From positions 480,001-544,000 of the IMG/VR virus record IMGVR_UViG_3300020045_008999: a stretch of 64,000 nucleotides of DNA. One strand, 5' to 3'. Every line of letters starts with the position of its first letter. Position 1 is the stretch's first letter. The notes below the pieces were generated by a model, which made no database searches, had not been told where the DNA came from, and saw only the letters and a program-made list of their open reading frames with translations. A program made the position numbers and the translations under genes. The stretch comes from a virus (taxonomy: Duplodnaviria; Heunggongvirae; Uroviricota; Caudoviricetes). Below, piece after piece: positions 14,528-62,479 of the stretch.

Positions 14528-14559
14528 AAAAAGAGTAAATGTATATTTACTCTCTTTTT
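14526..14559. terminator. bidirectional intrinsic terminator
   Basis: AGAGTAAAT/ATTTACTCT stem with A and T tracts, between convergent genes. Confidence 0.65.
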
Positions 14560-15023
14560 ATAATTTTAATATTATCTATCGAAAATACCCCAATCGACAA
14601 TATTTCAGATTCCAATTCTTCTTGTATAAATATGGAATCAAATCCATTTCCTAGAGCAGCATAAAATGCATCAACACAAGTCCAATAAGGCAATCCTTTG
14701 AAAATTTGATCATCCAATATATTTTGAATTTCATCTTGATCGCTATAATAATATTGCAAAGACTGCATGAATAATTCATAATGATTTGGATTTTCTAAGT
14801 CAAATGTATTTTTCAAATCAAGTTCAACACTATATAAATATTTACCATATTTCTTAGCATAATCAATGTTTTGAGTGAAGAACCAGGTAGGTATATCATT
14901 TTCAACATATCCCTTATTATTACACAAGCTAAATTCATCAAAAATATTATCGGAACCATGATAATATACATTAGATTTCAAAAATACATTAGCATACTCA
15001 TTAAACGTAGTTAAAATAAACAT
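14547..15023 (-). CDS. ADP-ribosyltransferase-fold protein (ART-PolyVal-like)
   Basis: YYHGS..IFDEF, WFFTQNIDYAKKYG, LYSVEL, GFDSIFIQE, VFSIDNIKI; N-terminal MFILTTFNEY. Confidence 0.6.
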   Translation of the reverse strand: MFILTTFNEYANVFLKSNVYYHGSDNIFDEFSLCNNKGYVENDIPTWFFTQNIDYAKKYGKYLYSVELDLKNTFDLENPNHYELFMQSLQYYYSDQDEIQNILDDQIFKGLPYWTCVDAFYAALGNGFDSIFIQEELESEILSIGVFSIDNIKIIKRE

Positions 15024-15067
15024 TTATTGACTTTTATTTATCTATATATTAATTACACAATATATAA

Positions 15068-15886
15068 TTAATAAACAAAATAAATATTTTCATTATTACA
15101 TTGCGGACATTTTATAATTGCGGAGTAATCTTCGGTTTCCGACAAATGAATCAATTCCGATTTCATAAACCCATCACATCGACATGATAAATTATTACAC
15201 TCAGCTTCAACAGGGTAACCACTTCGGGTGGTCTTTACAATTTCCACATTCGGATTTATTATTGCAACACTATCCCACTTTGAATAATCATGTGACCACC
15301 CTATTATTTTATGCCTAGGTTGCGCTAATTTAGTTAGTTTCTCAAACCATTCCAAACTACTAAATGTTGTAGAGAATGTTATATAATCCGCATGATTGAA
15401 ATATTCCAATATTACATCTTCCGATTTCAAATCAAAAAAATTGATAGTTACAATCTTTTTATTAGGAAATCGTCGTTTCAATGATTGGACCCATTTATAT
15501 TCCGCTTTTGAATCGTTCTCACAAATAACAACTTCGCCATATTCATCTATTGGGAAATGTGAATCGTATTTCTCAGCAATTATTTCATTATGCACAAGTA
15601 ACATGTAGGATCCGGATGGTCTTATTAGTATAGACTTATTATATTTTTCTACTATTTTCTCATAGTCAAGTTCTTGTGTACCCAACATAATCATTCGATG
15701 GCGTAGATCTTGTTTATCTGGTTGGTCCACTTTGTGTAATTGACTTATTTCACTTCTGATCATAATTTCCACCATATCAGAGGAAAGATTTTCAGGTTCT
15801 TTTACATTTGGTTCTAATACCAAAAACCAATTAGAATGTCCAACAACTTTCACATACTTATTCATTATTGATAATTTTCCCATCAT
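15068..15886 (-). CDS. hypothetical protein with C-terminal Zn ribbon
   Basis: CNNLSCRC...CPQC; host-type TATATTTG motif at 15980-15987. Confidence 0.55.
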   Translation of the reverse strand: MMGKLSIMNKYVKVVGHSNWFLVLEPNVKEPENLSSDMVEIMIRSEISQLHKVDQPDKQDLRHRMIMLGTQELDYEKIVEKYNKSILIRPSGSYMLLVHNEIIAEKYDSHFPIDEYGEVVICENDSKAEYKWVQSLKRRFPNKKIVTINFFDLKSEDVILEYFNHADYITFSTTFSSLEWFEKLTKLAQPRHKIIGWSHDYSKWDSVAIINPNVEIVKTTRSGYPVEAECNNLSCRCDGFMKSELIHLSETEDYSAIIKCPQCNNENIYFVY

Positions 15887-16020
15887 AATTTGTTTAAAAA
15901 TTTAACTTATTTTCTCAATTTAATCACGACATCCGTTATCTGATTATGTAAATAAATATGGATTCGCGATTAATTTAAACAAATATATGTATAAAAATCC
16001 AGAAAACCTAACAATTTATA

Positions 16021-17721
16021 TCATAATGAAATCTCAGACATTATAGTGAACGTGTTTTTCCTAAGTTCAATAATTCTATCGAAAAAATTACGTTCCAAAA
16101 CTGCGTGGTGTACTACAAAAACATTTATGTTATATGAATTTGCAAAGTCCCGCAATAGTGATAAAATGACTTCAATCCAATCAGAATCAACCGATGAAAA
16201 CATTTCATCGAGAAATAAAACGTTTAATGAATTACTCCCTCTTATCAACTTCAAATAAGCGACTAATATTGCAATGTTCACCAGACGACTTTCACCGGTA
16301 CTCAATGAATCATGATCCACCTTCTCAAACCCTTGGAAAATGTCAACATTGAAATCATTATCGATGACAATATTAAAAGGTAAATCCATTTTATTTTTGT
16401 TTTCCAAGATGTATTGATTCAATGGTCCTACTATACTCGCAATTATTGTTCGTCTAATACCTTGGTCACCAAGTATTTTTGTCAGCTCAGCATAATACAC
16501 ATCCCTTTTCGTATTTTGGGTTAAATTTATTTCACATTTATCTTTTCGTGCATTTAAATCATCTATTGATTTCTCAAACTCACTCACGTCAAATGTAGGC
16601 TCTGTATCAATATTTTGTTTTTTTAACAAGTCAGTTATTTTACTTTTATAACTACCCATCAAATAACGCAAATCATTAAACGACTTTGTGGTATTAGCCG
16701 ATATATTATTTAATTTATTCCTCTGTGTACCAAGCGCGGTGAGGTTCGCTTCGATTTCAGTTCTTATCTCAACTAATTTTACCATTTTTAAATCCAATAT
16801 CTGAATAAGTTCTTCATAATGATTGTTCGTAAAATCAGTTGAACATGTTGGACATTTTCCAGAGTTATATAAATCAATTTCAGTTTTGAGTTTACTAATA
16901 TCATGCCTAATTGTCGAATACGATTCTTTCTCGGTTTCAATTTCCAAATACAAACTATTAATTTTGACATTCACGAAATTCACCTTAGTTTGAAGTACAT
17001 CATATTCACTACGCATAGAATTAAATTTGCCTTTCAAATCTAAAATTTCATCAGAAATATTTTGTTGATCATTTACAGTCGCATTATTAATCGATCGCGT
17101 TATAGATGTTTGTATGGTTATTATCGAATCAATAAGAGTATTAATTTCAGAATCTAACTTCAACATATCGGTTTTATTGAACCGGTTCAAATCTTTCAAT
17201 ATAGTATTCATCATAGTAATTGTTTCCAAATTAAAAAGCTTGTCCAATAATAGTTTCTTTTCATCCGGTGTCAGTGCCATGAAGTTTTTGAAATCATTAA
17301 CTGATAGAGATATGAATGAATTGAACGTTTCTAAATTAATACCAACGTAACTTTCTATAAGAGCTTCTAAATTTGTTTTACTAAGTTTAGTATTCTTCAC
17401 ACCATCTTCATAAAGTTCAAGTATATCAGGATTAATGCCGCGAACCACTTCTATTTTCGTACCCTTTGATTCAAATTTAATGCGATTTAATAATTCTCTA
17501 TTGATGCGATTTGGTAAGGATGACAATGGTGCCCATTTGCGAGATCTACCCCGACATTTACCATATAATGTATATTCGAATGAATTTATTAGTGCGGATT
17601 TACCATTACCTATTTTCCCTACTAACAAACACAACTCACCACTCTCGGTATTCAATTGTAATGTTTGTGGATTATTACCATATGATTTGAATCCCTTTAT
17701 AATTAATTCACTTATTGTCAT
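16021..17721 (-). CDS. gp46/SbcC/Rad50-like recombination nuclease ATPase subunit
   Basis: Walker A GKIGNGKS, Zn hook CPTC within coiled coil, signature LSTGE, Walker B LFLDE, H-loop VVHH. Confidence 0.92.
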   Translation of the reverse strand: MTISELIIKGFKSYGNNPQTLQLNTESGELCLLVGKIGNGKSALINSFEYTLYGKCRGRSRKWAPLSSLPNRINRELLNRIKFESKGTKIEVVRGINPDILELYEDGVKNTKLSKTNLEALIESYVGINLETFNSFISLSVNDFKNFMALTPDEKKLLLDKLFNLETITMMNTILKDLNRFNKTDMLKLDSEINTLIDSIITIQTSITRSINNATVNDQQNISDEILDLKGKFNSMRSEYDVLQTKVNFVNVKINSLYLEIETEKESYSTIRHDISKLKTEIDLYNSGKCPTCSTDFTNNHYEELIQILDLKMVKLVEIRTEIEANLTALGTQRNKLNNISANTTKSFNDLRYLMGSYKSKITDLLKKQNIDTEPTFDVSEFEKSIDDLNARKDKCEINLTQNTKRDVYYAELTKILGDQGIRRTIIASIVGPLNQYILENKNKMDLPFNIVIDNDFNVDIFQGFEKVDHDSLSTGESRLVNIAILVAYLKLIRGSNSLNVLFLDEMFSSVDSDWIEVILSLLRDFANSYNINVFVVHHAVLERNFFDRIIELRKNTFTIMSEISL

Positions 17722-17740
17722 TTTGATACACTATTTAGAA

Positions 17741-17767
17741 TTATACCGAATGTGATCAAATTAGTTT
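17741..17767 (-). promoter_or_regulatory. putative ECF-type promoter AAACTA-N15-GTATAA
   Basis: Matches the recurrent motif; about 20 nt upstream of the gp46-like ATG. Confidence 0.6.
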
Positions 17768-18209
17768 ATAGTTCGTTTAAATATAACAACCTTTCTTCTA
17801 TTATCATCAGCGTAGATTCAAATCCATCAATGATTGTTAGACTGATAATTGCATCATACCTATCATGAATAACACTAAACATATAAACGTAATCCCCCAA
17901 ATAATGTACATTGTAATATAAATTAGATTGTCCTGGTCCATAAATCGTAATACATCCATATTCCATCCCAACTGTTATGACTTCGAATTGTTTAAATTTA
18001 TTTAGAATTAAATCCGCTTCACTTTGATCAAATATTTCATATTCTAATATTAAGGCATCGTAAACTGAGTTAATATCATCATCAACTTCACCAAAATTAT
18101 ATTTATCATAACGTTCATTTATCTCAAGTAATGCACTTTCAACATAATTAGTACCGAATTGTATATTTGTAATTTTATTAAAATCTTTAAAAAATTTCAC
18201 GTACCTCAA
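17766..18209 (-). CDS. array-A paralog (1 GDYxY domain)
   Basis: MRYVKFFKDF...INERYDKYNFG...YLGDYVY...IIDGFES. Confidence 0.75.
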   Translation of the reverse strand: MRYVKFFKDFNKITNIQFGTNYVESALLEINERYDKYNFGEVDDDINSVYDALILEYEIFDQSEADLILNKFKQFEVITVGMEYGCITIYGPGQSNLYYNVHYLGDYVYMFSVIHDRYDAIISLTIIDGFESTLMIIEERLLYLNEL

Positions 18210-18215: not shown

Positions 18216-18578
18216 TTATAATATTTTTATAGCATTAAGCAATGAATCAAATCCATCAATTATATCAATAGATACGACATGACTCGCCCTATGTTCACAA
18301 ATACAATAACAATAATCACCCAGGTGGAAAATCTCGTAAGTAACTCGATCATCTGTATTCACAATTCTAATAAATGCTATCAATGATGGTGTATTAAATA
18401 TGTCAATTGTAAATCTATCATCATCAATACTAATAATTTCATTTTGTTCGTCATCAGAGAATGAAGTACCGTAGTTATAAAATATCTCTATATAGTCAGA
18501 ATGTAGTGACATATCATTTGTAATTTTTTTACCGAATTCATATCTATCAAATCCTTCAAAAATTCTATAATATCTCAT
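18216..18578 (-). CDS. array-A paralog (1 domain)
   Basis: MRYYRIFEGFDRYEFG...HLGDYCY...IIDGFDS. Confidence 0.75.
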   Translation of the reverse strand: MRYYRIFEGFDRYEFGKKITNDMSLHSDYIEIFYNYGTSFSDDEQNEIISIDDDRFTIDIFNTPSLIAFIRIVNTDDRVTYEIFHLGDYCYCICEHRASHVVSIDIIDGFDSLLNAIKIL

Positions 18579-19336
18579 TAGTTAATTTTTATTTTCAAAT
18601 TCTCTATTACATCATCAATGTTATCAATTAACTCCGCGCACACTACCAAATCATATCGATCCATTGTTAATATTGAATAACAATAATCGTCTAAATAAAA
18701 TACATTATAATATTTAGCAGCACCACTATTATAATGTAATGATATAAAAGAATGGTTGGCGACATGTTCAACCAATCTAACATCAGTATCTATCTCATTT
18801 TCAATCAGACTAAACTCATTCACATCAAACATAATTCGATTACCCATTATCTGATTACAAATCGTATCTATATCGCTTCCATTTTCATATTTACCAAAAT
18901 CATATTTATCAAGTCCTTCACTCACTCTCAACCGGTTGGCAGCCGATTCATATCTATGAATAATTTCATCAATTGCATCATATACATTATCAAAAACTTC
19001 AACATCTACACCTCTACCGGCATATAAATTATATTCCGCAACACCAAATGAATAATCACCAAAATAATATAATTCAATCCCATTACCATGTTCTTCGATC
19101 GCAAGGGAACCTTTACTAATCACAATATAATCATAACTATCATTGGTTTCGGATGAGTCGTAATATGTCACATTTATACTCCTAACAGTTAATTCATTTA
19201 TAACAATTTCAACATCGGCAGCTTCAAATACTATCGCAATACTTCTCATATCTCGATAATTATTACCATTATCATCATTAGAATATTTTTTAACATCATA
19301 TTGATCGAAATCTTCAAATATTTTTATATATTTCAT
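18578..19336 (-). CDS. array-A paralog (2 domains)
   Basis: MKYIKIFEDFDQYD...YFGDYSF; second unit starts VSEGLDKYDFG...YLDDYCY. Confidence 0.75.
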   Translation of the reverse strand: MKYIKIFEDFDQYDVKKYSNDDNGNNYRDMRSIAIVFEAADVEIVINELTVRSINVTYYDSSETNDSYDYIVISKGSLAIEEHGNGIELYYFGDYSFGVAEYNLYAGRGVDVEVFDNVYDAIDEIIHRYESAANRLRVSEGLDKYDFGKYENGSDIDTICNQIMGNRIMFDVNEFSLIENEIDTDVRLVEHVANHSFISLHYNSGAAKYYNVFYLDDYCYSILTMDRYDLVVCAELIDNIDDVIENLKIKIN

Positions 19337-20073
19337 GTGTTAAGTTTATTTTTAAGACTGGATATTAATGCATCTAGACCATCAAAGTTTTCCAGTTCAA
19401 TAACAGTGCGTGCACTACCAACCATGGTAGTTAGGTTATAGCAGTAATCACCCAAATAGCATATCATAAACCCATTACTGATAGATATATGATCCACTTC
19501 ACCACTATTATTAGGAACCCGATAAATATGACACAAGCCAGTTAACTCAGATTTTATTAAGTCGATATCCTCTTGTTCAAAGTTATTTCGTTGTCCCATC
19601 ATCAAATCCCATTCGGTTTCTAAATCAGCACCTGATATTTTAGTAAAGTCATATTTGTCAAAACTTTCATTTATATCTTCATCTGGATCCTCACCATCTT
19701 CATGTTCTATTATTTCAATAATATGCGATATGATACTATCTAAGCCATCAAATGGAATTATAGCCATAACATCATCTGAACTATCATCCATAACAGCTAA
19801 ACAATAACAATAGTCACCCAAAGAATATACGTAATAATACTCCCCCTCATCAACCAACACATCAATGAACATCGATCCAACATTTTTATAGTAATTCTCC
19901 ACCACATCTACATCATCATAGTTTATCGCAGCCTTTATATAAGTTATTTCATCATCAGATAAGTCAATTGCCAATTTAAGCATTTCCAGATATTGCTCTT
20001 CTAAGTCAGTATAGATTGGAACGCCAAAATTATATTGGTCAAAGTTTTCGAATAATTTTATATATTTTCCCAT
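19333..20073 (-). CDS. array-A paralog (2 domains)
   Basis: MGKYIKLFENFDQYNFG...SLGDYCY...FDGLDS; second unit INESFDKYDF...YLGDYCY...FDGLDA. Confidence 0.75.
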   Translation of the reverse strand: MGKYIKLFENFDQYNFGVPIYTDLEEQYLEMLKLAIDLSDDEITYIKAAINYDDVDVVENYYKNVGSMFIDVLVDEGEYYYVYSLGDYCYCLAVMDDSSDDVMAIIPFDGLDSIISHIIEIIEHEDGEDPDEDINESFDKYDFTKISGADLETEWDLMMGQRNNFEQEDIDLIKSELTGLCHIYRVPNNSGEVDHISISNGFMICYLGDYCYNLTTMVGSARTVIELENFDGLDALISSLKNKLNT

Positions 20074-21264
20074 TTATCGTTTAATATTACTTTTGTGTAT
20101 ATACCCATTATCCCACTTTTCCAATAATTCAATAAGTATCTCAACAGTAGATTCGAATGTATCAACTGTATATATAGCAATGATATCCGCTGGTTTGCGA
20201 TCCATAACTACCAAACTATAGCAATAATCGCCATGATAATGCATTGAAACACTCAATGGGTAGCTATGATTCAGTCTAATTGTTATGGAATTGGTCAAGG
20301 ATAAATTCGGATATTCTTTAATCACATATTTTTCTTCAAATAATTCATAGATCGATTGTATATCAGCAGCATCCAAATCCTCTATACACTCATATAAACT
20401 TAAATACTCGTGTGTTAAATCACCCTCACGAACACCGAAATCATACTGGTCGAAGTTTTCAAATAATTTCATATCAGTTTTACGAATATCACCACAGTTC
20501 TCTACTATTCCACCATGTGTTTTATCCCATTTTTCCAATATTTCTCTAATAATTTCAACAGTAGATTCAAAAGTATCAACTGTGTGTATAGCAATAATAT
20601 CATTTGACAGATTATTCCAAACCATTAAGCTATAGCAATAATCACCATGATAATACATAGAAACACTAGCTGCGTTATTATATTTCAACTCAAATGAAAT
20701 TGATCTAGTTTGAGCGGCCTTAGGGTACTCTTTAATCAAATATTTTTCACCAAATAATTCATACAAAGATTTAATATCATCATTTTCTAAAAGTACACTA
20801 GAGTCATATAGACCAGAAAATTCAAAAGACAAATCGCCCTCTCTAAGGCCGAAATCATATTGGTCGAATTTTTCAAACATTTTTATATTTTCCCATTTTA
20901 TCATTATTTGTTTAATTAATTCGATTGCATCATCTAAGGTATTCAACTTATGAATAACTAATGCTTCATAATTTTGCTCATCAATTTCAGATACCGAATA
21001 ACAATAATCACCATGATAATAAAGTGTCAAACTTAGGTGATCAATCATGGCAGATGCAATCACCATAGTAGATGTTGGTGTTTTTGTAGGATATTCACTA
21101 ATTACATAATTTCCTAACTCAGAATACACCAAGTGTTTAGCATCTTCGTCAAATGGAATTGATGCATGATATGCATGCATGTATTCCGAGTCATCACCAT
21201 TTACAAAAACAGTTCTTCCAAAATCATATGGGTCAAAGTTTTCAAATAATTTTATATGTTTCAT
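20074..21264 (-). CDS. array-A paralog (3 domains)
   Basis: Three units starting KLFENFDPYDFG / KMFEKFDQYDFG / KLFENFDQYDFG, each with YHGDYCYS. Confidence 0.78.
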   Translation of the reverse strand: MKHIKLFENFDPYDFGRTVFVNGDDSEYMHAYHASIPFDEDAKHLVYSELGNYVISEYPTKTPTSTMVIASAMIDHLSLTLYYHGDYCYSVSEIDEQNYEALVIHKLNTLDDAIELIKQIMIKWENIKMFEKFDQYDFGLREGDLSFEFSGLYDSSVLLENDDIKSLYELFGEKYLIKEYPKAAQTRSISFELKYNNAASVSMYYHGDYCYSLMVWNNLSNDIIAIHTVDTFESTVEIIREILEKWDKTHGGIVENCGDIRKTDMKLFENFDQYDFGVREGDLTHEYLSLYECIEDLDAADIQSIYELFEEKYVIKEYPNLSLTNSITIRLNHSYPLSVSMHYHGDYCYSLVVMDRKPADIIAIYTVDTFESTVEILIELLEKWDNGYIHKSNIKR

Positions 21265-21632
21265 AATTCTATTTTTTTCAATGCTTCTATAACAGACTCA
21301 ATACCATCTACTATTGTCATTTTAACCGGCCTAGTATGTAACCACTCTTTATATACAACAGCATACACATAATCTCCTAAATAATAAACCGTCACGAAAT
21401 TTTCATGGTTTGTTAGTTTCTCTATTTTAACGCACACTTCACCATTATATGTATTCTTGGTATATACAAATATAGATTTCGTTTCGATATGGGTTTCAAT
21501 TTCCCGATATTCAGCAGTATCAAAATCTTGTACGTTTTTAATCATTTCAGCATATGATGCTGAAATATCATCACCATCATATGTTATAAATTCGTATCGG
21601 TCAAAGTTTTCAAATAATTTTATATGTTCCAT
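21261..21632 (-). CDS. array-A paralog (1 domain)
   Basis: MEHIKLFENFDRYEF...YLGDYVY...IVDGIES. Confidence 0.75.
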   Translation of the reverse strand: MEHIKLFENFDRYEFITYDGDDISASYAEMIKNVQDFDTAEYREIETHIETKSIFVYTKNTYNGEVCVKIEKLTNHENFVTVYYLGDYVYAVVYKEWLHTRPVKMTIVDGIESVIEALKKIEL

Positions 21633-21636: not shown

Positions 21637-22050
21637 CTATTTTTTTCCCCATAAATTTTCGTGCAAACATTTTATTACATCATCAATACCATCACACACA
21701 AACAGTTTAACTATATTCTCACTAATTCGGCGAATACTTTCGGCTTTCTCATTATACATTACACCATATGTATAATCCCCCATATACAAAATATAGACAC
21801 AATTCATAATCCGTGGGCTTATACTTGGTGCAACTATGACACCGGTTATTTCGTTACCCCCAACACACAATATTCTCCGAGGACTTACATAATATTCATC
21901 GCCAAAATCTGCTTTAATAAGATCTATATCATCATAAGATATGTCTATAGCCAATTTACGCATGTCGTCGTATATTACTTCGAGATCTTTATATATTCTA
22001 CCAAAATCATATCTATCAAAGCTTTCATACATTTTTACATACCTACCCAT
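21637..22050 (-). CDS. array-A paralog (1 domain), first gene of the array
   Basis: MGRYVKMYESFDRYDFG...YMGDYTY...VCDGIDD; TTTAATATATA 4 nt upstream. Confidence 0.75.
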   Translation of the reverse strand: MGRYVKMYESFDRYDFGRIYKDLEVIYDDMRKLAIDISYDDIDLIKADFGDEYYVSPRRILCVGGNEITGVIVAPSISPRIMNCVYILYMGDYTYGVMYNEKAESIRRISENIVKLFVCDGIDDVIKCLHENLWGKK

Positions 22051-22054
22051 GTTC

Positions 22055-22122
22055 TATATATTAAAAAAGATTTGGTATATTACATCCAATGCAGTATCTT
22101 TGTATTTGTAATTTAATATATA
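22055..22122. promoter_or_regulatory. back-to-back late-type promoters TTTAATATATA
   Basis: Motif at 22055-22065 (-) and 22112-22122 (+), each 4 nt from an ATG. Confidence 0.6.
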
Positions 22123-22511: not shown

Positions 22512-23081
22512 ATGGACCATTTAAAAAAATTTGATGAACTAATTGAGCTTGGCGATAAAAGACACCGTTTAGCAAAAGAATTGAAGAAATCGGTTGAATA
22601 TGAAAAATGTGATTATAGCATTGCTAAAGTGGACTCGATGGCCTATGAAGTAAGGTTTGTGTTAATCCGCAAAAGTGACAAAAAACAATTAACACACGGA
22701 TCTGCTACCGAGGTTAAGAGATACATTGAAAGAATAGGAATCGATCATAATAATATATTTAACATAGACCTAATCGGTATTATAATAGATAAAGTAGAAC
22801 TAGAACCATATAAAAAATTTATAGAATTAGCTGACGAGGGCGCAAAGAAATTTCGCGAACTCAAAGATTCTAAAATGTTTCATGATGCCGATTATGTAGT
22901 AATCAAGGACGGCCTACCTGGTCATTTCAAATTGATTGATACCAAAACCAGTACTATTAAAACATCCGGTACCCCATCTCGTATTCGAAGTTACCTGAAT
23001 CTGAGAAAAATAGACAAATCAGCAGTTTTTAAATACGAATTAATTGAAATTCAAGCTAAGAAACCTAATCAAAACGGTTAG
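22512..23081 (+). CDS. hypothetical two-repeat protein
   Basis: MDHLKKFDELIEL...HGSATEVKRYIERIGID; YKKFIELADE...SGTPSRIRSYLNLRKID. Confidence 0.6.
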   Translation: MDHLKKFDELIELGDKRHRLAKELKKSVEYEKCDYSIAKVDSMAYEVRFVLIRKSDKKQLTHGSATEVKRYIERIGIDHNNIFNIDLIGIIIDKVELEPYKKFIELADEGAKKFRELKDSKMFHDADYVVIKDGLPGHFKLIDTKTSTIKTSGTPSRIRSYLNLRKIDKSAVFKYELIEIQAKKPNQNG

Positions 23082-24479: not shown

Positions 24480-25328
24480 ATGACCAAATCAACTTTCCTT
24501 GAAAAGTCCCGATCAATACATGGATATAAGTACACCTATAAAATTGAAACAGATGATATAAAATTCACCGACATAATAACCGTCATATTAGACGAAATTG
24601 AGTATGAACAGCGATGTATCAACCATTTACAGGGAAAATGTCCAGAAAAACTGAACGCTACTAAGACAACGGATCAATTTATTTCGGAATCTAAGGCGGT
24701 GTGGGGACATACTCGCTTTGATTATACTCACACAATTTATACAAATGCGAAAACGCCGGTTAAATTATTAGATACACTTACCGGCCTTACAGTTGAACAA
24801 ATACCAATTATTCATTTGAAGAAAAATATACCGGTGACCATAAATCAATATGATTTCATGGAAATGTCTAAACGAGTTGCTGATTATTCATTAGAATATG
24901 ATCAGTGTATTTATATTAACAAAACCCACAAAGTCAATTTAAAATGTCCAGAACACGGATTATTCTCAGTTGTCCCATTTAATCACCTTAATTATGGATC
25001 TTCTTGCCCACAATGCACTTATAGTGCTGTTTTAAAGGCAATCAAGAAGCCACTTAATAAATTATACATTCAATATATAACACAAAAGAAGTTTATTGGA
25101 TGTGTAGATGAATACCAACTTCCATTTGATATATACATCCCTAGTATTTTATTAGCAATTGATATACAAACTATAAAATCATCTGAGGTAAATCAAATGA
25201 ATATTGTGAAGAATGAATATTGTGAGGAAAATTTCATAGAATATATCCCAATTGACGAAACCACTAATATAAATGATGTACTGAGTGACTATATATTACC
25301 CAAACTCAAATTAATTCATCACATTTAA
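24480..25328 (+). mobile_element. free-standing homing-endonuclease-like gene (repeated Zn-binding modules plus PD-(D/E)xK-like domain), possibly degenerate
   Basis: Repeats FLEKSRSIHGYKYTY and FISESKAVWGHTRFDY; CPEHGLF..NHL..CPQC; C-terminal LPFDIYIP..LAIDIQ. Confidence 0.65.
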
Positions 25329-25343
25329 TATATAATAAAAGTT

Positions 25344-25754
25344 ATGTATGAAAAAATGAAACATTTGAAACGGTTCAATGAAAATTTAGTAATTATTTTG
25401 CCCGAAGATGGTTCATATACCAAAATAAATAACGATCAATTTATTCAATTTAATAAAAATTATAAAAAAACTACAGATTGCGATATTGTAATTCAAACAG
25501 AAATTAATCGTTTTTTTAAAGCAGCTTCATCTAATGCAATGATGACTTATTCCAAAACAACTGATCCCAATAGAATACGTTTAGGTAATCCAGATGTGTC
25601 GGTAATTAATATAGATTTATACGATGATAACTGGATAATTATTTACTATTATAGAATAGATGGTTTATTAATGGAATTTTATCTATGTGATGGCGAATAT
25701 GGTATAATCCAGTTCACCAATGACTATATTGAAAATAAAAATATTATTATATAA
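25344..25754 (+). CDS. array-B paralog (1 DxW...CD[GQ] domain)
   Basis: MKHLKRFNEN (ATG 25356), LPEDGSYTKI, DDNW, YLCDGEYG. Confidence 0.75.
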   Translation: MYEKMKHLKRFNENLVIILPEDGSYTKINNDQFIQFNKNYKKTTDCDIVIQTEINRFFKAASSNAMMTYSKTTDPNRIRLGNPDVSVINIDLYDDNWIIIYYYRIDGLLMEFYLCDGEYGIIQFTNDYIENKNIII

Positions 25755-25842: not shown

Positions 25843-26580
25843 ATGATATATTTAAAAGGATTCAATGAAAGTTTAGAAAATTTACCACCTGATGGTGGAT
25901 ATTTAAAGTTAAGTTCAAATGAAATGAAAAGTTTCAGAGAACACTACAAAGTGGTAGAATATAATACTACTACTTATGCATATGCGTATAGTATGTTTGA
26001 AGAAAAATGGTTTAAAAAAATTAACCACGAAGACATTTGGTTGGATATTGATCTATTGAGTGATAATTGGATAGATGTCGAAATACAAATACAGTCGGAA
26101 CTAATGTTTTTTTTATGTGATGGTAGTGATGGATTGGAGAAATTATGTGATGACTTTGCTAAATTTATACCAGGAAAATCAATAACATCAGAAATAAACG
26201 AAAATACAACATACTCATTTCCAAATACCGGAAACTATACTAAGTTAAACCCTGATCAATTTGTGGATTTTTCAGACACATACAAACGGATTCATCATTA
26301 TGCGAATAATGTATATCATCCATTAATTGATATTTTTTTCGAAAAAGTAGTAAACGAATTACCCACTAATTCAGTATTAGTAAAAACACCAACTATGGTA
26401 AAATTTAAACAACGAAATCATACTGTAGTCAGTGTGGATTTTTATGAAGATGATTGGGTAGTGTTTAACTATTACAACTTCTTACTAGATAGTGCAATAA
26501 ACTACTATCTATGTGATGGTGAGGACGGTATAATTAAATTTTCAGCAGACTGGGATAAAAATAAACATGACATCAAATGA
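25843..26580 (+). CDS. array-B paralog (2 domains)
   Basis: MIYLKGFNES..LPPDGGY..DNW..FLCDGSDG; INENTTYSFPNTGNY..DDW..YLCDGEDG. Confidence 0.75.
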   Translation: MIYLKGFNESLENLPPDGGYLKLSSNEMKSFREHYKVVEYNTTTYAYAYSMFEEKWFKKINHEDIWLDIDLLSDNWIDVEIQIQSELMFFLCDGSDGLEKLCDDFAKFIPGKSITSEINENTTYSFPNTGNYTKLNPDQFVDFSDTYKRIHHYANNVYHPLIDIFFEKVVNELPTNSVLVKTPTMVKFKQRNHTVVSVDFYEDDWVVFNYYNFLLDSAINYYLCDGEDGIIKFSADWDKNKHDIK

Positions 26581-27392
26581 AGCATATAATATCATTCGGA
26601 AAATTAAACGAATCCAATCACATTTATTTGCCGGCTGATGGTGATTATAAAGAATTAAATCAATCTGAGTACAATTCTTTTTTAACACAATACCCTACAT
26701 GTAAATTAGATATTACGAACTCTGCTATACTTTTAGATACTTTACAGGCATTAGCTGAAAAATGTGTTGGTGCAGCAATCAGCAATAGAGGTGGTAGTTT
26801 ATCATATAGAATCCAATCTATTACACATTGGATTGACATCGATATGCGAACAGATAACTGGTTTGCAATTGACGCTCAAGTATTATCTGATACATATAAA
26901 TACATATGTGACGGGGAAGACGGGCTTAATAAATTTATTGAAGATTTTACTGGCATTATGCCAATGGTTAAATCAATGCCTATAAAAGAATCATTGAATA
27001 ATGTCTGGCCAGCAGATGGCAAATATTCTAAATTGACCGGTGCCCAATATATTGAATTCAAAGGGTTATGTACTTACCAGTATGAAAAAGATTCAAATAA
27101 ATTAATAGTTGATTCTATTAGTTTCATTTCTAAATTGTTTTCAGATGAAAATTGTAGAATTAACCCAACAAGAAGAAGCATTGTTTTTGATACACAATAC
27201 AAATCAATGAAAATATATGGTGTGCCACATGTGGATTCTTGGTTCATATTTAGGATCATGACATTTGACACCAACCACCCAGGTAATATAGGGGCAGGTC
27301 AACCCACATCCATAGACTTATACCTATGTGATGGTGAAGACGGTGTAACTGAATTTTTGAAAGATTGTAGAGAAATAATAGAAAATACATAA
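26577..27392 (+). CDS. array-B paralog (2 domains)
   Basis: MKHIISFGKLNES..LPADGDY..DNW..ICDGEDG; IKESLNNVWPADGKY..DSW..LCDGEDG. Confidence 0.75.
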   Translation: MKHIISFGKLNESNHIYLPADGDYKELNQSEYNSFLTQYPTCKLDITNSAILLDTLQALAEKCVGAAISNRGGSLSYRIQSITHWIDIDMRTDNWFAIDAQVLSDTYKYICDGEDGLNKFIEDFTGIMPMVKSMPIKESLNNVWPADGKYSKLTGAQYIEFKGLCTYQYEKDSNKLIVDSISFISKLFSDENCRINPTRRSIVFDTQYKSMKIYGVPHVDSWFIFRIMTFDTNHPGNIGAGQPTSIDLYLCDGEDGVTEFLKDCREIIENT

Positions 27393-29194
27393 TGAAGTAT
27401 ATTAAAAAATTTATTAAAATCAATGAGTCTATTGATCATTTATTACCAGAAGAGGGTGGATATGCTAAACTAGGCTATCAAGAACACGGTTTATTCAGCA
27501 TCAGTTACCCAATTGATTACCAATACGATCTTCGTAGTGATATTTTAATGGATTCAATCAAAACCATGGCCGCGTTATGTGGTGATCCAGATTACCAATC
27601 AAGGACACATCTACCTCGCTTGGTATACAAGATTAATCATGATGAATCCTATGTAGATTTAAAGATGCATATGGATAATTGGATCGTTGTGACCAATCAA
27701 TATAGGGATGAGAATCATTATTTTATATGCGATGGTGAAGAAGGACTGAGTAAATTCATCAAACATTGGAATTATAATATTAGAAATAATAAAAACAATT
27801 TAACAATTTTAGAATCAGTTGACTACTTATTACCACCGGACAACAGTTACACCAGAGTAGGTGATACCAGATTTGCTGAATTTGTAAAAGAATACCCTTA
27901 TATAGAAGACGATACGTTAACACCAGAATTGAAAGATGTGATGCGAGTAATATATGAAAAATGTAGTGATGAAAATGCACATCTATCAAAGCGTGAAGCA
28001 TTATGTTCATATGTGACACCAAGTGAAAATCTATGGATTACTGCAACCGCCTCTGCACATACTGATAACTGGTATTCAATTAAATTTAAACTCGATAGTA
28101 TATATGTAAATCATGCGGCATATTACATTTGTGATGGTATTTCGGGTCTGGAAGAATTCTCACAGGACTGGACCGGATCACACCTTATACAAATTGACGA
28201 AAGTGTCTCTTATCTACCAGAAGGATCTTATTCGAAACTAGATGAAACCGACTTATTAAATTTCATAAATACCTATGGGAAACCACGTATCAATTTAGAG
28301 CTAATGGCGGAATTCAAATCTTATCTAAATACTAATGATATTATAATTATAGACCAAATATCTAGGAATGAGATTATCATAGTAGTACATGGTATGAAAA
28401 TAGCAACTAGTATTTCAGAACATACTGATATGTGGATTTCCATCGTTTATGGTAAAGATTTTTATATTTGTGATCAAGAAGCGGGAATGTATGAGTTATT
28501 CGATATGTTATTCAATAATCGTGTTTTAGAAAACGCTTCTTATTTACCAACCGGATTGTACTCAGAAATTAATGCAGATGATTGGACTAATTTCTTACTA
28601 ACATTTGGTACTGGTGACGTTGATAAACATACGATCGATACATTACTAGTTTATGCTAAAAGTATTGACATAGAACCAACTATTAAAAGCTATAATTATG
28701 GTTTCACACGACCAAATGGCGAACAGTTTTACGCAAGCGTATACAAACATGATGATCACTGGATAAGTGTACTAACATCCGATCGTGGCTTATTTTTATG
28801 TGACCAAGAAGATGGAATGATTGCTCTTTTCAGAGATGTTTTAATGCCAAATGAAAAAAATAACGAAACAATGATAACAGAAAGTATAGAAGACGACGTA
28901 GAAGATGGTAGCTATTTAGAAATTGATAGCGACGATGTTTTAAAAATATGGAAAGATTATGGACCATCGTCTTTTGATATAACTGAAATTGAACAATTAG
29001 CAGATACACTTGGTAAGGAATATTCAATCAATCGTTTTGAAAAAGGTAATATAATAACAATATATAGTCATTCACGACACGAGTCCTCACAGGTGTGTAA
29101 ATTCGATGATGGTTGGTTCATTTGTAATAATGAACCAGATGCAAATTTCCTTTGTGATCAAATTGCGGGTGTGATTCAATTTATTAAATTATAA
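27392..29194 (+). CDS. array-B paralog (5 domains)
   Basis: Units begin INES, ILES, IDES, VLEN, ITES; each has DxW and CD[GQ]xxG. Confidence 0.78.
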   Translation: MKYIKKFIKINESIDHLLPEEGGYAKLGYQEHGLFSISYPIDYQYDLRSDILMDSIKTMAALCGDPDYQSRTHLPRLVYKINHDESYVDLKMHMDNWIVVTNQYRDENHYFICDGEEGLSKFIKHWNYNIRNNKNNLTILESVDYLLPPDNSYTRVGDTRFAEFVKEYPYIEDDTLTPELKDVMRVIYEKCSDENAHLSKREALCSYVTPSENLWITATASAHTDNWYSIKFKLDSIYVNHAAYYICDGISGLEEFSQDWTGSHLIQIDESVSYLPEGSYSKLDETDLLNFINTYGKPRINLELMAEFKSYLNTNDIIIIDQISRNEIIIVVHGMKIATSISEHTDMWISIVYGKDFYICDQEAGMYELFDMLFNNRVLENASYLPTGLYSEINADDWTNFLLTFGTGDVDKHTIDTLLVYAKSIDIEPTIKSYNYGFTRPNGEQFYASVYKHDDHWISVLTSDRGLFLCDQEDGMIALFRDVLMPNEKNNETMITESIEDDVEDGSYLEIDSDDVLKIWKDYGPSSFDITEIEQLADTLGKEYSINRFEKGNIITIYSHSRHESSQVCKFDDGWFICNNEPDANFLCDQIAGVIQFIKL

Positions 29195-30753: not shown

Positions 30754-31005
30754 TTAATATGTTAAAATTTCTTCAATGATAATTTTTCGATAATACATTT
30801 TAAAATCCGGTGATATATCCCTGAATTCACGCAGTATTAATAGAATAAATTCTGTATCATTTTCAGAACTTGTATAATTCATACATAGTGTTAGATATTT
30901 ATTAAGATTATCGTTGCTAATTCCAATTATTGAATAATAAATAGATTTGACAAGTAATTCATCTTTTATTACCTCATACATTTTAGTAATTTCCGCTGAC
31001 GTCAT
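30754..31005 (-). CDS. DIPxFK-RxxxIxxIL family small protein
   Basis: FRDISPDFKMYYRKIIIEEIL. Confidence 0.6.
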   Translation of the reverse strand: MTSAEITKMYEVIKDELLVKSIYYSIIGISNDNLNKYLTLCMNYTSSENDTEFILLILREFRDISPDFKMYYRKIIIEEILTY

Positions 31006-31013
31006 TAGATTCT

Positions 31014-31379
31014 CTATTTTAAAATATCATTAATTACTGAGTATCGATGTATATTGCGTAAGGTTGATATATCTTTCATGTACAACAATATAATTTCATC
31101 AATATGAGTTTTTAAATATCTATACTTAGCCATTTGTTCCCAACTATTATCAGTCAGTACCCATGCTCTGAATATATAGTATTTTATAAAACGATCGTGA
31201 TTCGAAAAATTATTATTATTATTTTCATAAGTATTTACTAGATCAGAAATAGTGTCACATCTTTCAAAACATAAAAGAATTTTAACACGATGTGTTTTTG
31301 ATATACAACGCCATCTGAGATAATTAATTGACTGTCTAAATAAATCATGTACCATTATTTTTAATGCTATTATTTTCAT
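31014..31379 (-). CDS. DIPxFK-RxxxIxxIL family small protein (divergent)
   Basis: YMKDISTLRNIHRYSVINDILK. Confidence 0.55.
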   Translation of the reverse strand: MKIIALKIMVHDLFRQSINYLRWRCISKTHRVKILLCFERCDTISDLVNTYENNNNNFSNHDRFIKYYIFRAWVLTDNSWEQMAKYRYLKTHIDEIILLYMKDISTLRNIHRYSVINDILK

Positions 31380-31615
31380 TTTATTATTTTAGCAATAAGC
31401 ATACTTCTCAACAAAATTTTAAATTCCGGTATATCCTCCTTGAAAGCTATCAGCATAAATTCGATGTAGAAGCGTAATTTTTCATCATCTTTACTATTGA
31501 TGAGTAAAGATGATGAAAAATTATCCCATCTGGTGTTACCAACCTCGTAAGTATGATTACTATAATATTCAAATATTATTTTAGTTATATGTGCTTGTGT
31601 TGTTCCTAAACCCAT
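31376..31615 (-). CDS. DIPxFK-RxxxIxxIL family small protein
   Basis: IIFEYY...FKEDIPEFKILLRSMLIAKIIK. Confidence 0.6.
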   Translation of the reverse strand: MGLGTTQAHITKIIFEYYSNHTYEVGNTRWDNFSSSLLINSKDDEKLRFYIEFMLIAFKEDIPEFKILLRSMLIAKIIK

Positions 31616-33179: not shown

Positions 33180-33259
33180 GTTTAAAATTCTTTAGGGTAT
33201 ATATTAAAAAGGAAGCATGTACATTTCTATATATATATCACAAAAATAACACACCAATT

Positions 33260-51556: not shown

Positions 51557-53656
51557 ATGAACCCAAAGAAAATCACAACATTAACTGATCGTAAAATCGA
51601 CGCAGAACAACTGAAAATCAATAATTCTATAGGTGATGATGACGACGATAACTCACCAAAGTACAAATCTAGCTATACACCAGATCCTAAATCTAAAACA
51701 CCGGTGATTGATCAATTCTGTAGAGACTTGTCCAAAATGGCCGAAGAAAAGAAGTTAGATACTGTAGTGGGCCGAAGCGAAGAAGTACATCGCGTATCCG
51801 TTATTTTATCACGACGTAAAAAAAATAACCCACTATTGATTGGTGAACCAGGGGTTGGTAAAACAAGTATCGCTGACCAGTTAGCTATGCAAATCGCCGA
51901 AAAGAAAGTGTCGCGCACATTATATGATAAAAGAATCGTATCCGTTGATTTGGGACAAATGGTTGCCGGTACTAAATACCGCGGTCAATTTGAAGAACGA
52001 ATCAAGGCATTGGTATTGGAACTTGAAAAAAATCCGCATATTATTCTTTTTATTGACGAAATCCACACAATCATAGGTGCGGGAGGTTCTGCCGGCTCTA
52101 TGGATGCTGCTAATATGTTAAAGCCAGCATTATCGCGTGGTGATATTCAGGTTATTGGTGCGACAACATTAGAGGAATATCGCAAACATATTGAAAAAGA
52201 CGGGGCTTTAGATCGTCGATTTCAAAAAGTTACGATCAATCCACCAAGTGAGGAAGATTCAATTATTATTTTGAATAATATAAAAGGCATGTATGAGGCA
52301 CACCATAATGTTATTTATTCACCAGAAGCAATTGAAGCTTGTGTGCGTTTAACATCACGTTACATTACCGATCGAAACTTACCGGATAAAGCCATTGATG
52401 CTATGGACGAGGTCGGTTCTAATATTCGCATTGCAAACATCGTAGTCCCACAAGAAATCTTAGACATTGAAATAAAAATTGCAGAGACTATTGAAAATAA
52501 AAATTTGGTAGTGAAGCAACAAAAGTATGAAGATGCCGCTAAACTTAGGGATGTTGAGAAAAAATTAGAAGTCATCTTAGTAGATGCTACTAATAAGTGG
52601 GAGGAAGACCAAATCAATAACAAAAAGATAATCACCGAGGATAATGTTGCCGGTATTGTTTCTAGAATGAGCGGAATTCCGTTGCAAAAAATTAACCAAT
52701 CCGAAACTAAAAAATTATCTACAATGTTTGATGAATTATCAAGCAAGGTAATCGGTCAAGATTTTGCGGTTGATAAAGTCGTAAAGGCAATTCAACGTGG
52801 TAGAGTTGGTATGAAAGATCCAAACAAACCATTATTTTCTGGATTATTGATCGGTAATTCCGGAGTTGGTAAAAGTGAATTAGCTAAACAATTAGCCAGA
52901 CAGATGTTTGATAATGACAGCTCATTAATTCGCATTGATATGAGTGAATATAGTGAGAAAGTATCGGTGAATAAAATAATCGGATCACCTAGTGGGTATA
53001 TTGGTTATGACGATAGTAATATATTGGACAAAATCAAAAGAAATCCCTATAGTGTAATACTTTTCGATGAAATTGAAAAGGCACATCCTGAAGTGTTTAA
53101 TCTATTCCTACAGATGTTAGATGATGGTCACTTGACTAATTCACAAGGGGTTACGGTATCATTCAAAAATACCATAATTTTAATGACATCAAATGTTGGT
53201 ACACGAAAAGTAAAGGAATTTGGTAGTGGGTTAGGGTACGGAACATCAACCAAAGTTAATAATTCATCTGATTCAATCAGATCCATATTGGATAAAGAAC
53301 TTAAAGTAGTATTTGCCCCGGAATTCTTAAATAGAATTGATGAAATAATTTATTTCAAAGATTTGGACCGCGAAGATATTAGTAAAATTGTTATTTTAGA
53401 GACTAATAAGTCTTTGAAAAGAGCAAAAACATTAGGATTGGATGTATCAATAGATCAGAGTCTAATCGATCACATTGCTACGGTTGGATATGATAAGGAT
53501 TTTGGCGCAAGGCCCTTGAAAAGAGCTGTACAGAAATTTATCGATGATGCAATTACCGAATATATTATTAAGAACGAACCAATTAAGTGTACACTGGTGA
53601 TGAAATTGAGCGAATCACTAGAAACCGAGATCGAGGATGTTACCGAGAATATTTAA
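51557..53656 (+). CDS. clpC: ClpC-like Hsp100 AAA+ ATPase lacking the N-terminal Clp repeat domain
   Basis: GEPGVGKT, GTKYRGQFEER, LFIDEIH, UVR-type middle domain YEDAAKLRD, GNSGVGKS, RIDMSEY, putative ClpP loop GLGYG, PEFLNRID, GARPL. Confidence 0.88.
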   Translation: MNPKKITTLTDRKIDAEQLKINNSIGDDDDDNSPKYKSSYTPDPKSKTPVIDQFCRDLSKMAEEKKLDTVVGRSEEVHRVSVILSRRKKNNPLLIGEPGVGKTSIADQLAMQIAEKKVSRTLYDKRIVSVDLGQMVAGTKYRGQFEERIKALVLELEKNPHIILFIDEIHTIIGAGGSAGSMDAANMLKPALSRGDIQVIGATTLEEYRKHIEKDGALDRRFQKVTINPPSEEDSIIILNNIKGMYEAHHNVIYSPEAIEACVRLTSRYITDRNLPDKAIDAMDEVGSNIRIANIVVPQEILDIEIKIAETIENKNLVVKQQKYEDAAKLRDVEKKLEVILVDATNKWEEDQINNKKIITEDNVAGIVSRMSGIPLQKINQSETKKLSTMFDELSSKVIGQDFAVDKVVKAIQRGRVGMKDPNKPLFSGLLIGNSGVGKSELAKQLARQMFDNDSSLIRIDMSEYSEKVSVNKIIGSPSGYIGYDDSNILDKIKRNPYSVILFDEIEKAHPEVFNLFLQMLDDGHLTNSQGVTVSFKNTIILMTSNVGTRKVKEFGSGLGYGTSTKVNNSSDSIRSILDKELKVVFAPEFLNRIDEIIYFKDLDREDISKIVILETNKSLKRAKTLGLDVSIDQSLIDHIATVGYDKDFGARPLKRAVQKFIDDAITEYIIKNEPIKCTLVMKLSESLETEIEDVTENI

Positions 53657-61169: not shown

Positions 61170-61181
61170 ATTCGAAAAAAC

Positions 61182-61322: not shown

Positions 61323-61549
61323 ACATGAGCGAAATGAGCATGGATGAAACCTTGGCGTATATAATTAGTGATTTGAAAATTAAAAATCGCGTTATAGTAA
61401 TTGATAACATATTGAACAATCTAGATGCACCATTATTAACTATAAGAGATCATCCTAAATATATTCAAAAAATAAATTCTTTTAATAATTGTAGTAAATC
61501 TTACTTTAGTAGCAGTTCCGGACTTAGAAGGTTGCTTAAAAAATATTAA
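61319..61549 (+). CDS. hypothetical protein, paralog of 61968..62192
   Basis: DLKIKNRVIVIDNILNNLDAPLLTIRDHP. Confidence 0.55.
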   Translation: MNMSEMSMDETLAYIISDLKIKNRVIVIDNILNNLDAPLLTIRDHPKYIQKINSFNNCSKSYFSSSSGLRRLLKKY

Positions 61550-61569
61550 ATTTATAAAACTATGCCAAA

Positions 61570-61965
61570 ATGAGTGATCAGTCAATTTATGTTACCAAAC
61601 GACATACTATAGATCTAGTGAGTGAAAACTTGATTTATGTATTACAAGAAAAATTCAATTTTGACTATCAGGTGAATAGTGCATTTATTGAAATACAAAC
61701 TGTTTTCGGACAAGCTGATCTAGGTGGTCCAATACTAATTGAAGATTTGATCACTTTGTTGAAGAATTTGAAGGAAATGGGTAGCACCCATGTTGAAATT
61801 GACTACCATATTGATCACGGTGAGTACCTACTTAGTGGATACATTATAGAAGAGTCATCCGAAGAAGAAATAGCAAAGTGGAAAGTTAATAAAACCCAAA
61901 TGGATTTGAGGAACCTGAGAATTCGGGAACTACAAGAAGAAATAAATGAATTAAGACGTATATAA
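61570..61965 (+). CDS. hypothetical protein
   Basis: GSTHVEIDYHIDH; coiled-coil C-terminus. Confidence 0.55.
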   Translation: MSDQSIYVTKRHTIDLVSENLIYVLQEKFNFDYQVNSAFIEIQTVFGQADLGGPILIEDLITLLKNLKEMGSTHVEIDYHIDHGEYLLSGYIIEESSEEEIAKWKVNKTQMDLRNLRIRELQEEINELRRI

Positions 61966-61967
61966 AA

Positions 61968-62192
61968 ATGGAAAATGATACAACAATCACTCTGACTGAT
62001 GATAAAATCGCAGAGATTACCAGGGATATAAAAGCTAAAAATAGAATAATTACTACTTCCAACATCATAGATAATACGGATAAACCATTACTTAGTATAA
62101 TGGACCACCCCACATTCGCGGTCAAGTATCATTATGGACACATCGATGCCAATGGTGTGGATGTTCACTATTTAATTGAGTATTATAAATAG
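61968..62192 (+). CDS. hypothetical protein, paralog of 61319..61549
   Basis: DIKAKNRIITTSNIIDNTDKPLLSIMDHP. Confidence 0.55.
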   Translation: MENDTTITLTDDKIAEITRDIKAKNRIITTSNIIDNTDKPLLSIMDHPTFAVKYHYGHIDANGVDVHYLIEYYK

Positions 62193-62236
62193 CAAATCAC
62201 CATTTAATATATACTGCAAATAAAAAAATATTAGAA

Positions 62237-62479
62237 ATGGAAAATATTAAAAAATATGAAGACTTTGGTGCTGACGATAAGTATTCTGATAAACAATTTA
62301 GATTAGAAGATCGCCGTGGCAAGGGGCAGCGAGTTGTGCTTCCGCAAAAACACTTTTTAGACACATGGGATTTATACCAATTGAGCTACGATGAAGTTTC
62401 CTTACTCGATTTCCTTACCGAGAGTAATATAGGTGATTCGTGGGAGGATTCTAGTTATAAAATAACCTGTATTGGGTAA
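62237..62479 (+). CDS. small protein with capsid-targeting-like N-terminus
   Basis: MENIKKYEDF; TTTAATATATA at 62203-62213. Confidence 0.6.
   Translation: MENIKKYEDFGADDKYSDKQFRLEDRRGKGQRVVLPQKHFLDTWDLYQLSYDEVSLLDFLTESNIGDSWEDSSYKITCIG

Follow-up and report, generated by a model that had tools for sequence, protein, structure and literature searches.

The stretch of DNA analysed here (64,000 nucleotides, hereafter called the window) corresponds to bases 480,001-544,000 of the 596,785-bp IMG/VR virus record IMGVR_UViG_3300020045_008999, which represents an uncultured T4-like megaphage. The locus raises the question of why many of its genes open with a variant of one short peptide, and why a hydrophobic-x-Glu site stands wherever copies of a small domain are joined within one gene. 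A sequence-only reading of the window had proposed that the products are packaged in the phage head and injected, and that the multi-domain members are polyproteins cut by the prohead protease. We conclude that the N-terminal peptide (the tag) is almost certainly real and functional. A role in directing proteins to the prohead, like that of the T4 capsid-targeting sequence, with the protease then freeing the cargo, is a reading to which we give even chances.

A short tag at the N-termini of dissimilar proteins

The tag has the consensus M-K-[HY]-[IL]-K-x-[FY]-[EN]-[DEN]-[FY], or a longer form that closes in hydrophobic-x-Glu. It is carried by 17 genes of the window and by approximately 57 of the 875 open reading frames (ORFs) of the genome (6.5%, about one gene in fifteen). 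The count of 57 was obtained with a looser threshold of a position-specific scoring matrix (PSSM) and a second rule, the core motif followed by hydrophobic-x-Glu; the narrower set consists of 36 PSSM-scored carriers. About 16 genes of the window had originally been listed, and every example given was recovered, together with two further carriers, 21637-22050(-) and 41365-41811(+). Two of the listed examples were present but matched weakly, namely MFILTTFNEY (14547-15023) and MKLFEK with its TTG start (43060-44256).

The tag is strictly N-terminal and is selected as protein. The genome-wide motif search that had been proposed yielded 23 PSSM matches within the first ~12 residues of the 875 ORFs versus 5 in 164,171 internal positions, and these five include three mis-called starts and the internal copy in 20074-21264. 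With internal Met residues as controls, 13.5 starts with the core motif would be expected, and 71 were observed. When the first 14 residues of the 36 carriers were removed, the remaining sequences fell into four paralogue families and ~24 singletons without detectable mutual similarity. The tagged genes are scattered across the whole genome, with no clustering at one enzyme.

We compared 90 distinct tags from IMG/VR at the codon and residue levels. Codon choice was mixed (for example, CAC 48 / CAT 42 and TTA 37 / CTA 25), and Phe7, Glu8, and Phe10 were conserved with free synonymous codons. Position 6 was Leu in 68 of the 90, L-F-E occupied residues 6-8 in 68, and residues 11-13 tended to [LIV]-N-E, with Glu13 present in 47. 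A hydrophobic-x-E inside residues 10-17 was seen in 51 of the 90 tags, and this feature is not universal. At the N-termini of all proteins, [ILVFM]-x-E-[SN] was enriched at residues 5-12 (47 versus 22 expected) and [ILV]-N-E-[SN] was enriched about 9-fold, while the Asp, Gln, and Lys controls were flat. The tagged proteins are also more acidic (Glu 7.4% versus 5.8% in the remaining proteome), and [ILV]-x-D is likewise higher in them. The families recovered by Pfam and PHROGs scans of about 40 tagged proteins were limited to an HNH endonuclease, ankyrin repeats, and an ART-PolyVal match below threshold.

The tag in viral and cellular genomes

The source record is 98% complete as judged by CheckV, has a G+C content of 31.9%, and uses the standard genetic code. 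The window DNA gave no match to GenBank phages by blastn. The capsid protein of the phage has its nearest GenBank relative in LR745206.1 (67% identity); further close matches are LR756502.1, LR756504.1, and LR756501.1 (735 kb), and all of these are unannotated huge-phage records. Prevotella Lak phages (30%) and Tenacibaculum phage PTm1 (27%) are more distantly related by the same protein.

The tag is virus-specific. An exact match to M-K-H-I-K-x-F-E-[DN]-F was found in at least 120 IMG/VR stretches, where the proteins that bear it are very diverse, versus 5 occurrences of the same pattern in 596 Gb of bacterial and archaeal genomes, four of the five being in contigs of Bacteroidota metagenome-assembled genomes. 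A Gp23-type capsid gene is present in 16 of 29 tag-bearing viral records, including all four with at least 90% completeness. In LR745206.1, 39 loose tag matches were found versus 2 in the control; tblastn with a 20-residue tag query lacked the sensitivity needed for GenBank phages. No Shine-Dalgarno sequences are apparent upstream of the genes of the source phage, and the Bacteroidota-type word TAnnTTTG is enriched there genome-wide. From these two properties and the four cellular tag matches in Bacteroidota contigs, we infer that the host is a member of the Bacteroidota.

A hydrophobic-x-Glu site at every joint of the multi-unit genes

Two arrays in the window contain the multi-unit genes (Table 1). 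Family A consists of seven genes that form one operon behind a strict late motif at 22065(-), and its units start with [NS]-F-D-x-Y-D-F-G, while those of family B, on the opposite strand, start with L-P-x-D-G-x-Y. A hydrophobic-x-E stands at all four family-A joints (three are [ILV]-x-E and one is MFE) and at all six family-B joints, and in both families the joint Glu is in register with the Glu of the N-terminal tags. The junction sites previously read from the sequence (VSE/G, INE/S, INE/N, IKE/S, ILE/S, IDE/S, VLE/N, ITE/S, KMFEKF, and KLFENF; slashes mark candidate cuts) were all found in their places.

A search among 1.84 billion representative proteins retrieved 29 family-A proteins of 1-4 units, and all listed N-termini were tagged. 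In the distant homologues [ILV]-x-E was present at 13 of 13 internal joints, while P2 and the linker length varied. Two separately tagged homologues together match the three-unit gene 20074-21264: P0016 (126 residues) is 58% identical to residues 1-127 of its product and ends at KWENI, and P0011 (275 residues) is 79% identical to residues 127-392 and begins with a full tag. The window gene is therefore a fusion exactly at a tag. For family B, the sole homologue in the protein collection, P0002, retains the tag and the joint of the 25843-26580 product, and a related-locus search found no family-B relatives in IMG/VR.

Structure prediction had been suggested as a way to see whether the sites fall in linkers or form an integral part of the domain fold. 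The AlphaFold2 model of the 25843-26580 protein (mean predicted local distance difference test score, pLDDT, 71) has two folded domains, and residues 1-11 and 112-122, which hold the tag and the joint, are modelled as coil with pLDDT below 50. Thus, for family B both sites are predicted to lie in coil outside the domains, whereas the family-A model was unusable. The one usable model supports a disordered tag outside the folded domain. When the family-B model was compared with the PDB by Foldseek, no match was obtained at E <= 0.001.

The tagged genes and a late-type promoter

Genome-wide, TT[TA]ATATATA is the most enriched word upstream of genes. It lies within 60 nt of 208 genes, TAnnTTTG is found at 106, and the two overlap at only 15. 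The former word ends ~18-31 nt before the starts of the capsid, protease-scaffold, and several large structural ORFs. The co-occurrence of the tag with this motif, which had been put forward as a check, was borne out: [AT]ATATATA is present at most 100 nt upstream of 23 of the 36 tagged genes versus 200 of the 839 others (odds ratio 5.7, p = 8e-7). Tagged genes without a motif of their own are mostly downstream operon members, as in the seven-gene family-A array. The link is weaker but present in the relatives (odds ratio 2.2, p = 0.009). These results support the view that the tagged genes would be expressed late, alongside the head genes.

The head module and a candidate cut rule

The capsid protein matches Pfam Gp23 (E = 7e-25), and its gene adjoins that of a 680-residue protein (genome 446370-448469(-), locus L236) in which a protease and a scaffold are fused. 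The first ~165 residues of the latter resemble T4 gp21 (Pfam S77, PF03420, E = 1e-5, 23.4 bits with a cut-off of 27), a clade profile matches T4 gp21 (PDB 5JBL) with E = 4e-6, and the aligned catalytic positions, which are mutated in 5JBL, carry an invariant His and Ser. The scaffold part comprises about ten 14-residue repeats, NIxYSEY[IL]AE[NS]LDx, an acidic spacer, and a conserved C-terminal domain. This architecture is kept in about 80 relatives, and in PTm1 the protein is annotated as "prohead core scaffolding protein and protease". The protease itself starts with the tag-like MKPVLIVE/N, and SSINE/S follows the protease domain; T4 gp21 removes nine N-terminal residues from itself on activation (PMC9958956).

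The capsid protein has a highly conserved 44-residue N-terminus that ends in ...HSINE/NAY and is followed by a variable segment. This ending is identical in nearly all of the ~45 distinct relatives listed (one has HSLNE/NAY and L098 is divergent), and N43-E44-N45 is invariant in a nine-sequence alignment that includes PTm1. A single-sequence search of the capsid protein against the PDB found nothing. The capsid profile aligns only its C-terminal half to T4 gp23, and INE/N is not mappable by alignment onto the T4 cut.

Hydrophobic-x-Glu thus recurs at the capsid propeptide boundary, at the N-terminus of the protease, after the protease domain, in the scaffold repeats, at tag ends, and at all joints. 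Given the site at the capsid boundary, the protease ends, and the scaffold repeats, our best guess for the cut rule is hydrophobic-x-Glu followed by Asn or Ser, which would be a rule of the same kind as that of T4. A complex prediction with residues 205-699 of the scaffold protein and a 73-residue tagged protein gave a score of 0.00, which counts neither way on binding.

Other tagged genes and neighbouring features

The remaining tagged genes of the window are listed in Table 1. The protein encoded at 14547-15023 matches Pfam ART-PolyVal (E = 1.2e-6, 29.7 bits with a cut-off of 31.2) over residues 19-156, and because the match starts at residue 19 its tag lies outside the domain. Where ORFs overlap on opposite strands at 21637-22116, the minus-strand ORF 21637-22050 is a real gene (family A, late motif), and the longer plus-strand ORF 21661-22116 is probably spurious. 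Outside the window, a third tandem array of about nine small paralogues with MIKKF[KI][LR]F[LTV]E/S tags lies at genome positions 236296-240506(-). A 120-residue tagged protein (genome 288736-289098(-), locus L016) consists of MKHIKGINE/D, a capsid-like segment, and a basic tail; the 38 residues after its INE/D are 45% identical to the capsid segment just past INE/N, and by this similarity the protein appears to be a free-standing mimic of the mature capsid N-arm.

A different motif, R-x3-[IL]-x2-[IL][ILV], ends 75 of the 875 proteins versus ~2 expected. It was found on none of the 57 N-tagged proteins (Fisher p = 0.011), and from its distribution it looks like a second, mutually exclusive address label. 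Two other genes of the window may be mentioned. The 2184-residue ORF 6251-12805(-) stands behind a late motif and has one fn3 match at 22.4 bits (cut-off 25 bits); it probably encodes a fibre or decoration protein. A Lon-like ATP-dependent protease is encoded at 51557-53656(+) (phrog_4871, E = 2e-222), with no late motif.

Table 1. Tagged genes, the family-A promoter, and genes with the C-terminal motif, in window coordinates.
Position	Strand	Feature	Tag and candidate sites	Late motif and remarks
14547-15023	-	ADP-ribosyltransferase-like, weak tag	MFILTTFNE/Y	behind late motif
17766-18209	-	family A, one unit	32-residue leader MRYVKFFKDF...YVE/S...INE/R (nt 18114-18122)	
18216-18578	-	family A, one unit	MRYYRIFE/GFDRYEFG	
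18578-19336	-	family A, two units	MKYIKIFE/D; joint VSE/G aa 138-140 (nt 18917-18925)	
19333-20073	-	family A, two units	MGKYIKLFE/N; joint INE/S aa 134-136 (nt 19666-19674)	
20074-21264	-	family A, three units	MKHIKLFE/N; joints IKMFE/K aa 129-131 (nt 20872-20880), MKLFE/N aa 267-269 (nt 20458-20466)	
21261-21632	-	family A, one unit	MEHIKLFE/NFDRYEF	query of library-wide search
21637-22050	-	family A, gene 1 of 7, one unit	MGRYVKMYE/SFDRYDFG	opens operon, motif just upstream
22055-22065	-	late-type promoter TT[TA][AT]ATATATA		heads family-A operon; same motif before capsid, protease-scaffold, large structural genes
22512-23081	+	singleton	MDHLKKFDELIE/L	second gene behind late motif at 22112; no Pfam family
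25356-25754	+	family B, one unit	MKHLKRFNE/N	motif 25324-25334; ORF opens at 25344, tag begins at Met5
25843-26580	+	family B, two units	MIYLKGFNE/S; joint INE/N aa 118-120 (nt 26194-26202)	
26577-27392	+	family B, two units	MKHIISFGKLNE/S; joint IKE/S aa 136-138 (nt 26982-26990)	
27392-29194	+	family B, five units	MKYIKKFIKINE/S; four joints, ILE/S (nt 27806-27814), IDE/S (28193-28201), VLE/N (28523-28531), ITE/S (28874-28882)	
32319-33179	-	singleton	MGLKKYYDFINE/A	motif 33198-33208(-); no Pfam family
41365-41811	+	singleton	MVKLFKLSFVE/S	
43060-44256	+	weak candidate, TTG start	MKLFE/K	motif at 43031; below PSSM threshold
62237-62479	+	80-aa singleton	MENIKKYEDF	motif at 62203
1013-1387	+	C-terminal motif		
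5153-5533	+	C-terminal motif		
13735-14262	+	C-terminal motif		
30754-32273	-	C-terminal motif		five genes
36061-36288	-	C-terminal motif		
41811-42221	+	C-terminal motif		

Discussion

In the mechanism that we propose, the tag would be a short amphipathic stretch, hydrophobic at position 4 and with Phe or Tyr at position 7, that binds the scaffolding core (fused to the gp21-like protease) during late prohead assembly. The protease would then cut after hydrophobic-x-Glu, that is, after Glu8 where the tag is of the K-L-F-E/N form and/or after Glu12-13 where it is of the ...[LIV]-N-E/S form, and the cut would release the cargo within the head, from which it might be delivered to the host. For the FEN-type tags a cut after Glu8 (L-F-E/N) seems likely, with a second candidate site often at Glu13. 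Genes of 2-5 units carry the same site in the linker before every unit, and one tag could load a chain that is cut into single domains. The parts of this reading are not equally secure. Head targeting by the tag is moderately probable, its trimming by the protease is evenly poised, the cutting of the joints is possible if somewhat doubtful, and delivery of the tagged proteins to the host is a tentative suggestion.

Several observations weigh against this reading. The sequence of the tag differs from the T4 capsid-targeting sequence MKTYQEFIAE, with which it shares only M1, K2, the hydrophobic position 4, and F7, and ten residues are too few for statistics or a homology test. About 40% of the IMG/VR tags have no hydrophobic-x-E at residues 10-17, and in many tags P3 of the Glu8 site is non-hydrophobic (as in T-F-E and K-F-E). 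No depletion of [ILV]-x-E was seen within the tagged proteins and cargo domains (ratio 1.27, which tracks their higher Glu content), and in the Pfam and PHROGs scans almost no cargo domain matched a family of known function. The AlphaFold2 model of the 19333-20073 protein is poor (pLDDT 48); its joint lies in low-confidence coil and its tag could not be placed. The joint Glu abuts the conserved domain start, so conservation of the joint could have been inherited with the repeated domain. The 735-kb relative, the Lak phages (Lak-C1), and PTm1 show few or none of this form of the tag, and since it is abundant in LR745206.1 but scarce in the 735-kb phage, Lak-C1, and PTm1, the form is lineage-restricted. 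Finally, the clade of the source phage has no cultured member; the sole cultivated megaphage is phage G (PMC12484599).

The point about the joints leads to an alternative that accepts head loading by the tag but takes the multi-unit genes to encode intact tandem-repeat proteins, in which hydrophobic-x-Glu is a conserved N-terminal domain cap passed on through duplication and fusion. The units are homologous, so the site is inheritable; the family-A Glu directly abuts [NS]-F-D-x-Y-D-F-G; the copies of the tag inside 20074-21264 could pass for what is left of a recent fusion; and the cargo domains are not depleted of the site. However, in units that are only 25-35% identical, P3 and P1 never change although P2 and the length of the linker do, the family-B joint is a low-confidence coil outside both domains, and the same rule holds also for the boundary of the capsid propeptide, for the ends of the protease, and in the repeats of the scaffold. 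We consider intact repeats unlikely. The original proposal of head-packaged, injected polyproteins stands in part: the portable, N-terminal, phage-specific, and apparently late tag, its gp23/gp21 context, and the recurrence of the site speak for it, whereas the joints could be a domain cap and the cargo is not depleted of [ILV]-x-E.

One could also envisage that the peptide is an address or docking label for some other phage partner (a virion part, a chaperone, or a Lon-like protease for which it would serve as a timing degron) rather than for the head interior. The connection of the tag with the prohead is a predicted rather than a physical one, a Lon-like protease is encoded in the window, and the C-terminal motif, never seen on an N-tagged protein, suggests that the phage uses more than one label. 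Yet the tag is similar to the T4 sequence at positions 4 and 7, where targeting has been mapped (PMC9026906), its closing site is also that of the capsid propeptide and of the repeats in the scaffold, the protease-scaffold itself opens with a tag-like sequence, the tagged genes would be expressed late together with the head genes, and the near-absence of the tag from cellular genomes argues against a signal read by the host. A label for another partner is, in our estimate, rather improbable. It is very improbable that the shared leader serves for recognition by a modifying enzyme such as a radical-SAM protein, as the tagged genes are dispersed genome-wide and form no cluster at a single enzyme; a radical-SAM leader in particular was rejected, since Radical_SAM and SPASM gave matches in control genomes but none in the 98%-complete genome. 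That the tag is a by-product without protein function, arising from paralogue ancestry, from a translation-initiation preference in AT-rich mRNA, or by chance, is scarcely credible and is already largely refuted. Eleven of the 17 window carriers do lie in two tandem paralogue arrays, and in AT-rich genomes it is common for genes to open with Met-Lys and codons rich in A. These points are outweighed by the ~24 unrelated tagged singletons, the conservation of Phe7, Glu8, and Phe10 under free synonymous codons, an N-terminal excess of 5-fold to 80-fold over controls, and the 120 or more IMG/VR instances on unrelated proteins versus ~5 in a far larger cellular collection. A motif acting at the RNA level was rejected because the synonymous codons of the tags are mixed, and a purely paralogous origin because ~24 carriers are unrelated singletons.

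The capsid-targeting sequence of T4 has reportedly been known since Mullaney and Black in 1996. The sequence, MKTYQEFIAE, is carried by IPI, IPII, IPIII, and Alt and is removed by gp21 (PMC9026906, PMC9958956, PMC3012670); in IPIII the targeting determinants map to residues 4 and 7 (PMC9026906, section 2.6). The system described here is like that of T4 in having an N-terminal M-K peptide of ~10 residues on otherwise unrelated proteins, with a hydrophobic or aromatic residue at positions 4 and 7 (I/L and F/Y, respectively, here) and an end in hydrophobic-x-Glu, in having a capsid of the gp23 type, a protease of the gp21 type, and a scaffold in which these sites are abundant, and in that one carrier, as is Alt, is ADP-ribosyltransferase-like. 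It differs in its consensus (MKHIKLFE[DN]F, often followed by [LIV]NE, which often gives two candidate cut sites), in the number of carriers (~57, or 6.5% of genes, versus a handful in T4), in the fusion of protease and scaffold in one 680-residue protein, and in the 2-5-unit chains of some carriers, with a candidate site at each joint.

Other systems resemble the present one less closely. In phiKZ, 201phi2-1, and SPN3US, a gp21-related protease cuts inner-body and ejection proteins after [SAG]-x-Glu (PMC5694885, PMC10052503). These are also giant phages that pack many head proteins, that have a gp21 relative cutting after Glu, and that have redundant propeptide sites, but their propeptides are mostly longer than 100 residues and do not have a short tag in common, P3 is a small residue (Ala, Ser, or Gly) rather than Ile, Leu, or Val, and the capsid lineage differs. 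The polyvalent proteins of phages and conjugative elements (Iyer et al. 2017, PMC5512222), as far as they are described in PMC7824862, are multi-domain proteins thought to enter the host with DNA, and the ART-PolyVal family is represented here by 14547-15023. By the same description, a polyvalent protein is of very large size and brings together enzymatic domains of many different kinds, whereas the chains here (245-600 residues) repeat one small domain and do not qualify as polyvalent, and the ART-like protein is a stand-alone product of 158 residues with its own tag. As with the tag, a short portable peptide sends unrelated cargo into an HK97-fold shell in encapsulins. The cargo-loading peptides of encapsulins are C-terminal, bind the shell protein directly without protease or scaffold, and are not removed, whereas the tag here is N-terminal and a protease and scaffold are encoded. 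The principle of a T4-type tag is already known. Our literature search found no paper that describes this tag or that ties huge phages to capsid targeting.

Taken as a whole, our observations tentatively suggest a plug-in cargo system in a large, uncultured clade of T4-like jumbo phages and megaphages of Bacteroidota, in which an MKHIKLFE[DN]F[LIV]NE tag of 8-13 residues may load dozens of unrelated proteins (~6% of genes), fusions may be cut to single domains, and a C-terminal label may sort 75 other proteins elsewhere. This reading predicts neo-N-termini after the named Glu residues. If it is true, gene fusion at a protease site would be a cheap route to more cargo, and the conserved, portable loading tag would be usable to pack foreign proteins into capsids. 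Should the tag function as it does in T4, one could read the injected proteome of these uncultured giant phages from sequence, and each genome would offer dozens of candidate host-takeover or anti-defence proteins.

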